A stretch of 64,000 nt of DNA from Octopus vulgaris (taxonomy: Eukaryota): positions 81,654,001 to 81,718,000 of the forward strand of contig OX597826.1 of the NCBI GenBank assembly GCA_951406725.2, read 5' to 3'. Positions 6,301-61,990 of the stretch are shown piece by piece. Every line of letters begins with the position of its first letter. Within the stretch, counting starts at the first letter, position 1. Position numbers and translations under genes: made by a program. The notes beneath the pieces are model-generated. The model was not told the DNA's origin. It ran no database searches and saw only the letters and a list, made by a program, of their open reading frames with translations.

Positions 6301-9300
6301 TAACGACAACAACAGCAATAATACTACTACTACTAATAAGAAATAATAATTAATTAAAGTCATTTGATTTAATTACGAAATAAAAGCGAAACAAATTACT
6401 GCTGTCGGATTATACACTTTAAAAAAAATCTTGATTAAAATCTATTTTTATCCTAGACGGCGCCACAGTGTTCATTAATAAAGAATGATTAATTCACAGA
6501 TCCCCACGGGGGAAAACCAACGGTTAATGAACATTATTTTGGTATAATTCATTATAATCCTTTGTTGCACCGCAACCTATCATAACGAGGCAACTATTAT
6601 CATATTGATGATGACTGTTGTGATGACAAGCAAATATTATCTGCGGGAAAATCCATCAGACACAGTTTCGAATAACGCAGAAGCAGTCAGGGGACTTTCG
6701 AAACCACTTCACCGTATTTAGGCCTTTAACGTACGTAACAATGATGCACGTGTATTGATTGGATTTGATGATTAAGGTATTACACGTTTTTAAGGATGTC
6801 GCACGAACTTACACGTTGTGATATTCTGTGGTTTCGCCATACATGGACTACATCACACACACATATATACAAAACTTTATAATTAAGATATATACGTACA
6901 TATTTACACACACACGTACGCACGCACGCACGCGCACGCACGCACGCACGCACGCACGCACGCACGCACACGCACGCACGCACGCGCACGCACGCACGCG
7001 CACGCACGCACGCGCACGCACGCACGCGCACGCACGCACGCGCACGCACGCACACGCACCGCACGAACACGCACGCACGCACACGCACGCACGCACACGC
7101 ACGCACGCACACGCACGCACGCACGCGCACGCACACGCACGCACGCGCACGCACGCACACGCACGCACGCACACGCGCGCGCGCACACGCACGCACGCAC
7201 ACGCACGCACGCACGCACACACACATACGTAAATACATTCATATTTATGTGTATGTATACATATGAATAATATACCACATATGTGATAAAGATTTGATGA
7301 TAATGCGCGCCTCCCCTTCACCGTTTTCTATCTGTTTCTCTCTCTCTTTCTCCCTTTCTCTTTTTCTATCTCTCGTTGTTCACACGTGACCATCGTTCAT
7401 CTTTCTTTTCCTTCAGGACTGTCCTAAGGACTGGACGTATCCCATCTCTCTCTTCTATCTTTTCTCTTTTCAAAGAAAATATTTCTCCAGCTATTTTACC
7501 CTCGTTCTGGTCTAACGGCCCTCCATGTTTGTTTGCGTTCGGTTTCCTTTATGTATCCACTGTCCTGTTTTTGTTCCCAACTTGGACCCTCCATAAATCT
7601 AAAATTTTATTTTGGTACTTATAGGAGCAACTGTCTTGGAAGGCTCATATTATCGTCCAATGCTCGAAATGAGGAGTAGACAGACAGCCGACAACTGATG
7701 AAGGGTCGTTCTTTGTGTTACTTGTCCTATTTTCCATTTGTTTCTCTCATTGTTTGCGTAATGAATTCATTTGTTTTCGTATTTCATGTTGTTTACTGTT
7801 GATGATATCCTGTACCCATATATGCATATTATGTATGTATATATATAATAAAAATATATTTGCATATATAAATTATATATTTATATATATATATATATTG
7901 TGTGTGTGGAATATGTGTGTGTATGCAAATATGTACTCTTTTACTCGTTTCAGTCATTTGACTGCGGCCATGCGGAAGCACTGCCTTTAGTCGAAGAAAT
8001 CGACCCCTGGACTTATTCTTTGTAAGCCTAGTACTTATTCTATCTGTTTCTTTTGCCGAACCGCTAAGTTTCGGGGGCATAAATACACCAACATTGGTTG
8101 TCAAGAAATGATGAGGGGAAAAATACAGACACAACAAGCACACACACACACACACACACATGCATATATATACAGGACGGGCTTCTTTCAGTTTCCGATT
8201 ATCAAATCCACACACAAAGGTTTGGTCGACCCGAGGCTCTAGTAGAAGACACTCGCGCAGGATGCCATGCAGTGGGACTGAACCTGGAACCATGTGGTTG
8301 GGAAACCTTAATTATAAAGCTTTTATGTGTGTGATGCAGCACAATCCATATATGCAGAAACCACTGAAATCAGAACGTCGGGAGGGATGTAAATCAACAG
8401 ACTTAATTAATTATTAATGCATATATATTATGAAATATAGGCACATTTCATTCTATATATTACGGATTCATTGTTTACTTTTTATATTATATGAAATCAA
8501 ATATCTTTCTACATTAATGTATGGAATATCTATGTTGTTAATAAGAGGCCAGTCATAGTTGGTGGGTAGGCTTATCATACATGTCCACGCTAGAACCAGG
8601 TCATTTTTACTGAGACGGCGAGCTTCAAAACATACAAACCGCGAAATCGTGATTTCAATTCCCAGCAAAGCACTTCATTTCGTGCTGCACCAGCCCACTC
8701 AGCGGTAAACGGGTAATGCTGCCCCTGCATCGTTAAAATAAACATCAGACGTACTAAACCCTTAAAGGCAGTGCCCCATCATGGAAGAACTGTATGCCTT
8801 TTTCGGTCACCGGAGCTACGGTTTTTCTCCATGTAGACTTAATAGTAAACTTTGTAAATGACTTTGTTTAGCAGGAGTTTCAGTCTGTTTGTAGTGGAAG
8901 AGTCAACTTTTTCCGAGAGATTAGCTTAATGACTGTTTTTTTTTCTGTATACAGTATTTGAAGGAGCAATTTTCGGTAAACATAGTGGATATGAGTCATA
9001 CCTTAGGCGAAGTTTTTTTGGAATTGGTGGAGCACTTGACAAAAGGCTTTCTACCCTCTACATTCTGAGTCCAAATTATGCTGAGCCTCAATTTATCGTA
9101 CAATCCTCCAGTAATACAAAATATCCAACGCTTACGATCACACACACACATGAACACTTACCTTTTTTCTCTGAATAGAATGTCGCCAGCAACGCGTTGC
9201 TTCTGTTTGATTTCTTTAGTTGAAGCACTACATACACACTCCAGCTCGAAGATACAAACGTCAGAGTCTGATTGCCACATTTTTTGCCCAAAAGTTTTGC

Positions 9301-60899: not shown

Positions 60900-61990
60900 A
60901 AAACCTCGTAAATGTGTAAAATACATTTATTTACATATATACCAAACTAGTTTCAACAATATTTTTCGTTTGTCAATGGTAAAAGTTTAAAATTAGAAAA
61001 AAAAAAAAACATTTTTAAAAGTTTCAATGTTGACAAATTAACAAGTTCAAAACAGAAGGTGTGAGTCTGAATGTTCATAGCAGTCAATAAAATTAAAACT
61101 GTATATCAATTTGTTCATTAAGTTTTATGGTGGTCGACAAGTCATACTGAAAAAACAAGTGTGAAATGAAAATAGTAAAAAAAAAAGGGGGGTGGAATTT
61201 GGTTTACAGTTTCTCTGATCCTCTTCTAATAGACGCTTTCGCTTGTGATGGTATATTTTGGGATCAGAGGAATTGATAATTTTATTCCGCGAGCGGATCT
61301 GATTTTTGATTCGTTAAAATTCTGGTGACATGTTTTTTTTTCCCGTGGTCAAGCTTGTCGTTTTGCTTGGTTGGTTTCCTTGTGGATACGGTCATAAGTC
61401 GTTCCGGTTGGTTGGTTCTCTTACAGGGTCATGTCGTTGTATTCGCTGAAGTTCGTTTTTGATTGGTCTTTAGTTAGGTGACGTCAGCACCTGGTGTTTG
61501 TAGAATTTCATTGGACTGTAGGTGGGTGACGTCAGCAGTTGATGCTTGTGCGGTGATTTAGAGTTGCGGTTTCGAAACCCGAGTGGAAGATTGTTACTAA
61601 AGTTTTCAGCACATGTTGGTAGAGTAACTCCACCTCTATAGAAACCTGTCTTCTCGATCTTCTTCATGGTAGATAAATAGTAGAGTGCAAACAGAAGCAA
61701 CAAGCGGACAGTCAGTTTTCGGTGAAGAAAGAAGGCAGCATCCACAGAAGGTAACAGAATATTGAGCAAGATGTCAGCACAAATGGATTAAAGTAGAGGA
61801 AAGCAGCATTGAAGACAAAGCAGAGAGTGGGAGACTAAGAGATGCCGTCACTGACATGAGACGCCAGTAGGTGGACGGATTGATTCTGGCAGACAGAGGA
61901 GGAGTCACTATGTGGGAGCTCGCTCTATAAACTGGACTGCTCTCAATGCAGAATAGAAAATGACGAGAAATATTAATTATAGACTTTAAG
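60900..61990 (-). mobile_element. Probable decayed Penelope-like element ending in a degenerate hammerhead motif (60941-60980)
   Basis: Non-microsatellite ORF remnants (61470-61990), an AT-rich 3' region, then ACCA UUGACAA ACGAA..UUGUU GAAAC UA GUU UGGU; family assignment is inference. Confidence 0.45.

Follow-up and report, generated by a model that had tools for sequence, protein, structure and literature searches.

The stretch analysed here (the window) is 64 kb long and covers positions 81,654,001 to 81,718,000 of contig OX597826.1 of the Octopus vulgaris genome, which comprises 2.80 Gb in 227 contigs. Its minus strand carries a gene encoding a multi-CUB single-pass membrane protein, of which eight exons map within 3217-60661; one CUB-domain exon is 100% identical to a record named 'cubilin isoform X2 [Octopus sinensis]'. 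A first-pass annotation had listed eight hammerhead-ribozyme-like motifs in this host gene. The sequence of all eight is present (sites 1-8, Table 1), and all are intronic; sites 3-8 stand as type I hammerheads, site 2 was wrong as called, and site 1 was misparsed. We think it fairly probable that the motifs stem from eight retroelement families as fragments of their 3' ends, seven of these families with type I hammerheads, and that site 1 carries a rearranged hammerhead, predicted to cleave itself as a monomer, in an element that is likely of the Naiad type.

In the shuffled control that the first-pass annotation had proposed, a strict type I descriptor stood above chance, with 2 matches in the window against a mean of 0.23 in 40 local dinucleotide shuffles, none of which reached 2. 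A medium descriptor gave 4 against 1.6, a count reached by 3 of the 40 shuffles, and the relaxed descriptor stayed near chance (9 against 7.4, reached in 12 of 40). By itself the relaxed descriptor cannot tell signal from chance, whereas family alignments can. Since single motifs were unconvincing alone, each site was aligned with 29 other genome copies, which are the best 30 of 40 scored loci with the reference locus included. The eight sites belong to eight different repeat families of high copy number, each with 500-5,167 candidates at first look, in agreement with the several distinct families noticed at first. The Rfam search suggested at the same time did not recover the motifs: there were 0 window matches at gathering score, and hammerheads were absent among the best 150 of the 303 window matches listed by E-value. 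Four loci bearing the rearranged motif of the site 1 type also gave 0 hammerheads at gathering score, and a genome search with RF00163 gave 6 matches out of 73 scored candidates.

The family majority lines of sites 3-8 are type I hammerheads with CUGANGA (or UUGANAA), GAAA, UH and stems I and II. Together with that of site 2 they make seven majority lines with a type I core, and in all seven stem III is a perfect or one-base-loop palindrome, as the first reading had supposed. Depending on the family, cores are intact in 3-19 of the 29 other copies. Judged from these alignments, sites 3-8 are real type I minimal hammerheads of six families, five of them Penelope-like 3' ends and one retrozyme-like. 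The minus-strand motif called at site 2 (14771-14828) was rejected: its core is a private change of the window copy, and CUGANGA occurs there in 0 of the 29 other copies. The corrected motif lies on the plus strand, where the window copy has lost stem III together with the 3' strand of stem I. A 1x1 loop is found below helix II in three families, C.A in those of sites 5 and 7 and A.A in the third.

Exact patterns requiring both core blocks were used for genome counts per type. They gave 1,013 matches for the site 5 type, 1,979 for site 4, 84 for site 3 and 173 for the site 6 type, with 0 in controls; the U3-A8 types gave 3,020 against 212 in the control. The 173 matches of the site 6 type (L330-L354) share one stem III palindrome and have a short, highly varied helix II; they may represent many small retrozyme-like families.

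Table 1. Positions in the window of the motif sites, of the parts of the site 1 fold and of the host gene exons
Feature	Position	Strand	Remark
Site 1, re-read	7585-7707	+	Non-circularly permuted hammerhead fold, antisense to host gene
Site 1 helix V	7585-7590/7702-7707	+	
Site 1 hairpin VI	7591-7624	+	
Site 1 helix II	7625-7629/7661-7665	+	
Site 1 helix IV	7631-7636/7682-7687	+	Joins helices I and II
Site 1 helix III	7644-7648/7669-7673	+	
Site 1 helix I	7650-7655/7689-7694	+	One mismatch in window copy
Site 1 predicted cut	7649/7650	+	After AUA
Site 1 core block GAAA	7666-7669	+	
Site 1 core block CUGAUGA	7695-7701	+	
Family A repeat bearing site 1, 3' part	7343-7845	+	ORF-less; fixed 3' end ~130 nt past core, then (TA)n
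Site 2, corrected	14829-14857	+	U3-A8 type I minimal motif, Penelope-like 3' end
Site 3	18420-18478	+	Decayed type I hammerhead: C3U, GUC>GUG
Second site 3-family copy	46506-46565	-	Absent from original list; core intact, stem III altered, GUG site
Site 4	20498-20558	-	Type I hammerhead with G5A
Site 5	34057-34112	+	Type I hammerhead, core intact, 1x1 C.A loop at helix II base
Site 6	37842-37884	-	Canonical-sized type I hammerhead; U3.G8, stem III mismatch
Site 7	57561-57652	+	Type I, long helix II (decayed), C.A loop at base, core intact
Site 8	60941-60980	-	U3-A8 type I minimal hammerhead, family-intact
Host gene exon	60511-60661	-	Bounds from contig ends
Host gene exon	50646-50768	-	
Host gene exon	34745-34870	-	
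Host gene exon	30249-30401	-	
Host gene exon	27431-27520	-	
Host gene exon	16184-16315	-	
Host gene exon	9163-9315	-	
Host gene exon	3217-3306	-	

Site 1 had been taken for a minimal type I motif of the dimer kind (7631-7683), but the core and stem I of that parse fail across the family, and the site has a full helix III, unlike such motifs. All core letters are present, in the order site, GAAA, CUGANGA, which Eckert et al. call SGC, with 25 nucleotides (nt) from GAAA to CUGAUGA. In the window copy the core is preserved, and helices I and VI contain a single mismatch each. CUGANGA is not directly followed by a helix II strand. The strand before GAAA pairs with one about 70 nt 5' of CUGANGA, forming helix II, and this upstream strand begins with G in nearly all copies, thereby providing G10.1. 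The 3' extension of the helix II strand pairs with the strand preceding helix I (helix IV), and the bases past A9 pair with the leader (helix V), enclosing hairpin VI immediately before G10.1. The chain would thus run through the helix II 5' strand, helix IV, helix III-UH-helix I, helix II-GAAA-helix III, helix IV and helix I-CUGANGA. Helix IV would join the far ends of helices I and II, the role of the interaction helix in the SGC and CSG hammerheads, and both chain ends would exit via the extra helix between A9 and G10.1.

A descriptor for the SGC order, applied over 1.88 Mb, gave 29 matches against 1 in the reversed control, the divergent groups A, B and C included. In 28 copies from all subfamilies, helices II, IV and I are paired in 82.4% of cells against 59.5% after shuffling (0/500) and 25-51% in slid controls, with two-sided changes in 12 of 15 pairs; four Naiad-type rows that are out of register were counted against the pairing. 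Families A/B reach 92.3% in helices V, VI, II, III and I against 80.4% shuffled (0/500; 14 of 24 pairs two-sided), and family C reaches 88.9% in all six helices against 85.2% (0/500; 16 of 40). Two-sided changes between subfamilies are seen in each of helices I-VI.

The subfamilies are only 55% alike in alignment, in which G12, A13, A15.1, U4 and A6 are invariant; C3, G5, G8, A9, A14 and C11.1 are kept at 90% or more, and N7 is free. The U16.1-A15.1 pair occurs in 13/13 (A/B) and 10/10 (C) rows, the G10.1-C11.1 pair in 11/12 and 9/10, and position 17 is A, C or U in 28/28. Conserved purines in the loop between helices III and IV presumably resemble a kink-turn or bulged-G motif. From these patterns, site 1 is very probably a selected hammerhead-derived fold, and the fold is predicted, with good but lesser confidence, to cleave itself. 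Presumed-RNA contigs from 4 runs have higher summed depth just past the predicted cut in 4 of 4, which is not evidence of cleavage, as contigs cannot show ends; the window copy also differs from the family just 5' of the cut, confounding contig depth. The same kind of contig also covers site 7, and is dominated by a very abundant repeat at 7868-8364, which resembles a short interspersed nuclear element.

The fold is carried by families A, B and C, repeats of 0.8-1 kb with (TA)n flanks, fixed 3' ends and partial tandem or inverted neighbours; family A has direct and inverted neighbours in 5 of 30 loci. Exact genome matches with both core blocks number 4,213 for A/B, 7,469 for C and 312 for the Naiad type (at least 12,000 copies in all; controls 0). 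The Naiad-type count is that of the motif of Naiad_Ovul. Profile searches of a 600-kb sample, consisting of sixty 10-kb stretches at round-number genome positions, gave 8 copies or fragments and 0 reversed. The 5' part of family A (L093, L068, L090, L085) has a GTAAGT resembling a splice donor and a pyrimidine tract with CAG resembling an acceptor, which bracket part of the element, an arrangement that was likened to the intron of the Penelope terminal repeat.

Published Naiad sequences, from the portion available to us of the supplement of Craig et al. (2021, PMC8557442), were read by eye, without computation. The octopus and bobtail-squid consensus 3' ends Naiad_Obim, Naiad_Ovul and Naiad_Esco have the same layout as site 1, with an imperfect helix II in Naiad_Esco. 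Of five further Naiad 3' ends, four can be parsed by eye as entire CSG hammerheads that have a GUC site and an interaction helix of 8-15 bp; by metadata order, three of these are probably Naiad_Parc, Naiad-3_Nbra and Naiad_Hcon, and one is unnamed. Families A-C likely belong to Naiad-type Penelope-like elements. An open reading frame (ORF) beside a family C copy (L069) was rejected as the parent of that copy: of three stretches with intact or near-intact relatives, the one that was read completely carries a terminal repeat of another kind.

We lean to the view that Naiads kept hammerheads, in non-circularly permuted forms missed by standard descriptors (CSG in nematodes and others), and that the cephalopod wiring, opened at A9/G10.1, would self-cleave as a monomer in tens of thousands of copies. 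The octopus form would be a CSG with the segment from helix IV to A9 shifted from front to back, likely derived from a CSG ribozyme that was duplicated head to tail and then lost the outer halves. It would probably serve to trim the element transcript, as proposed for type I motifs. Reverse transcription starting near the element 3' end would leave short 5'-truncated insertions that retain the ribozyme and little else, and these would then decay neutrally, in introns and elsewhere.

Several points weigh against this proposal. Upstream ORFs for reverse transcriptase (RT) or GIY-YIG were looked for in 30 loci of family A, 30 of family B, 21 mixed A/B/C loci and 6 loci with the Naiad motif, and none was found; therefore, the tie to Naiad rests on the shared fold, the 3' position and the (TA)n flanks. 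Two of the five cephalopod Naiad ends examined by eye in the same supplement portion, Naiad_Omin and Naiad_Adux, have no such motif. In the sections consulted, Eckert et al. (2023, PMC10085705) start from the assumption that CUGANGA is inseparable from the adjoining helix II strand, and the site 1 fold separates the two; for a helix at A9/G10.1, a literature search with part of the sources accessible turned up no precedent that had been tested. In the 600-kb sample, a strict SGC descriptor in which the trailer supplied helix II gave 0 matches. Relatedness among the copies inflates the covariation counts, and the same sequences served to derive the structure. Finally, an Anolis Penelope-like element inserts in vitro without hammerhead cleavage, according to the part of PMC11167929 consulted.

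The last of these points, together with the missing precedent for a break at A9/G10.1, would suit a hammerhead-derived fold that no longer cuts and is retained for the RT as a folded 3' element that serves recognition or stability. We consider this unlikely, given that catalytic positions, the free N7, a non-G position 17 and the G10.1-C11.1 pair are all kept across subfamilies so little alike, and a mere binding element would not obviously require all those features. Less probable still is an ordinary SGC with a switch, in which the G-rich trailer past CUGANGA would be the active helix II, held off by the upstream strand and helix V. In families A and B, 4 pairs between the trailer and the pre-GAAA strand are indeed possible, and family C has a 4-bp match a few bases further on; yet trailer pairing fills 76.6% of cells, mostly as G.U, against 79.7% in the slid control, with 1 of 5 pairs two-sided, whereas helix II formed with the upstream strand is 96.7% paired, with 3 of 5 pairs two-sided. 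The trailer is itself paired within helix V (90%).

The first-pass annotation had tied the repertoire to the introns of one gene, which leads to the idea of functional hammerheads that cut the host pre-mRNA. Its best candidate is site 8, which is family-intact, on the sense strand and 280 nt ahead of the splice acceptor of exon 60511-60661. The pre-mRNA strand, however, carries only sites 4, 6 and 8, of which two have core or stem defects, and the other five sites are antisense. Minimal motifs depend on a partner, and their cleavage is poor even in dimers (Cervera and de la Pena 2014, PMC4209133, in the part consulted). Window copies have an identity of 0.73-0.98 to the family majority, comparable to the medians of 0.79-0.94 for the other copies, and arbitrary genome stretches are equally dense in motifs, as described below. 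We regard this explanation as highly improbable. The window motifs are mostly decayed neutral relics, and nothing points to their having a role in the host gene.

In the 600-kb sample, strict intact-core motifs number 21 against 0.7 (mean of 10 shuffles), in 17 of the 60 stretches and in 13 sequence families, which extrapolates to ~95,000 per genome (bootstrap 53,000-137,000). Scored motifs number 63 against 5.8 shuffled, about 1 per 10 kb, with a scoring scheme set after inspection of the window and a threshold at the level that catches sites 3-8. The same score gives 9 against 0.65 shuffled in the window, three of the 9 being unverified or false. The density is genome-wide; the window is typical, and nothing in it is special to the host gene. 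The very large unannotated repertoire expected at first is borne out by these counts: the genome is exceptionally rich in hammerhead relics, and its type I motifs are otherwise of a known kind. An ORF remnant lies within 2 kb of only 1 of the 21 strict motifs, so that a Penelope origin of the sampled motifs is presumed. Descriptors for CSG, GCS, type II and type III gave 0, 0, 0 and 1 matches in the same sample. Two weak type I parses in the window, at 18116-18151 (+) and 42048-42096 (-), score close to sites 6 and 7.

The Penelope-like origin put forward for the motifs agrees with same-strand ORF remnants upstream of five families and of the corrected site 2. Remnants with RT and GIY-YIG lie 5' of the motif in 9 of 30 loci for site 2 and in 6 of 30 for site 8. 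A second endonuclease type occurs likewise in 25 of 30 loci for site 3 (query sequences were partly taken from this family), 4 of 30 for site 4, 2 of 30 for site 5 and 1 of 30 for site 7; two further upstream remnants were recognised by eye. Site 3 itself adjoins a GIY-YIG-type ORF remnant at 18177-18314, about 100 nt past its end. The remnants 5' of sites 2 and 8 match RT-GIY-YIG frames of 753 amino acids (aa) from a young family; these frames we take to be Neptune-like from their cysteine linker. The second endonuclease type, which had no match in a homolog search, is presumably Nematis-like, to go by its motifs and the Atlas neighbours of a linked RT fragment. In this young family, which is possibly still active, the 753-aa ORFs are intact and match both RVT_1 (E 4e-7) and GIY-YIG (E 0.0016; 1.6e-6 in a relative). 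In L257, L258 and L259 it shows many near-identical open 753-aa frames, ORF1 upstream in another frame and a U3-A8 hammerhead. In a second young family (L445:475-4382) a 557-aa ORF1 overlaps a 775-aa RT-GIY-YIG frame, and the terminal repeat, read by eye, has a U3-A8 type I motif with GCAA replacing GAAA.

For site 5, an origin as the tail of a long interspersed nuclear element was ruled out by the GIY-YIG-type and RT remnants upstream. Site 4 is one arm of an inverted pair, of which the plus arm is 5'-truncated, with an optional tail of about 65 nt. A fixed hairpin element was rejected here, the palindrome being an effect of the query: with a one-arm query a second copy lies nearby in 12 of 30 loci. 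The tail is present in 14 and absent in 16 of 30 loci, and such endings with and without a tail are a Penelope-like signature in the parts consulted of Craig et al. (PMC8557442) and Frangieh et al. (PMC11167929). A tail-only fragment of this family lies between TA repeats at 13083-13145 (+).

The window copy of site 6 is a truncated monomer (37737-38007) of a head-to-tail unit of about 350 nt, inserted next to a mariner-like piece; 17 of 30 loci, the reference locus included, align across more than one 353-nt unit. Shared sequence beyond the unit was not seen, and an RT/GIY-YIG ORF lies upstream in 0 of 30 loci. The copies have 3' ends at two points about 30-35 nt apart, which, with the unit structure, fits a retrozyme that may be moved by Penelope machinery.

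Other Penelope-like ORF remnants, without a listed motif, lie at 4-363 (-), 20326-20412 (+), 22300-22410 (+) and 27684-27752 (+). Remnants at 21831-22133, 25042-25473, 38017-38394, 51433-52249 and 63559-63870 we take to be other non-LTR (long terminal repeat) retrotransposons and one mariner transposase. In L251, L255, L256 and L261 (-) an SGC-type parse with stems of 6-7 bp runs antisense to the GIY-YIG coding motif of one family; it is absent from a related young family and was set aside as likely chance.

If the permuted Naiad hammerhead is real, non-circularly permuted ribozymes would move from a few environmental sequences into animal genomes, and the apparent absence of hammerheads in the Naiad clade would be explained. 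It would also add a wiring excluded by the six-permutation scheme of Eckert et al., as set out in the part of PMC10085705 consulted. With thousands of natural variants across several subfamilies, the site 1 fold lends itself to direct tests, and permutations may arise by way of the tandem arrangement to which Penelope-like elements are prone. A search of the literature on octopus, permuted, Naiad or Penelope-like hammerheads, with subscription papers outside its coverage, found no account of this wiring.

The comparisons with known systems that follow are limited to the parts of each source available to us. Sites 2 (corrected), 3, 4, 5, 7 and 8 share with the minimal hammerheads of PMC4209133 the type I order, the palindromic stem III and the extra base past A9. 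Further likenesses are the U3-A8 variant, a core described there in Schistosoma, the solitary truncated copies and the inverted neighbours. On the other hand, the estimated ~95,000 intact-core motifs of octopus, which is not among the species in the portion of that supplement searched, greatly exceed the 2,000-9,000 reported in that work for Schistosoma, coelacanth and Xenopus, with the caveat that the descriptors were not the same, and the 1x1 loop (C.A or A.A) of three octopus families sets these apart from the published motifs. Site 6 resembles non-LTR retrozymes (PMC7229834; preprint 10.64898/2026.07.22.740005) in its head-to-tail unit of ~350 nt, 6-bp stem I, 4-bp stem II and lack of an ORF; unlike them, its copies are old, dispersed and mostly of 1-2 units, with two-point 3' ends as in Penelope tails.

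Families A-C are like Naiad elements (PMC8557442) in the 3' position of the motif, the (TA)n flanks, the 5' truncation and the direct or inverted neighbours, and, unlike them, were without an ORF of their own at every locus examined. In that account Naiads are without canonical hammerheads and eight are marked HHR_half_core, whereas the visible 'half cores' can be read as rearranged hammerheads that are complete. In vitro cleavage has been observed for SGC and CSG RNAs (PMC10085705); in the same work neither is reported from the genomes of known organisms, one GCS candidate apart. With these RNAs site 1 shares the cyclic strand order, the helix joining I and II, the core letters and the short linker between helices I and II. 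It differs in that the chain ends within block C (A9/G10.1) and is closed by the extra helix plus hairpin, and in its occurrence in an animal genome, in over 12,000 copies. As deduced from its pairing, the site 1 fold would work like an SGC or a CSG hammerhead, but is neither.

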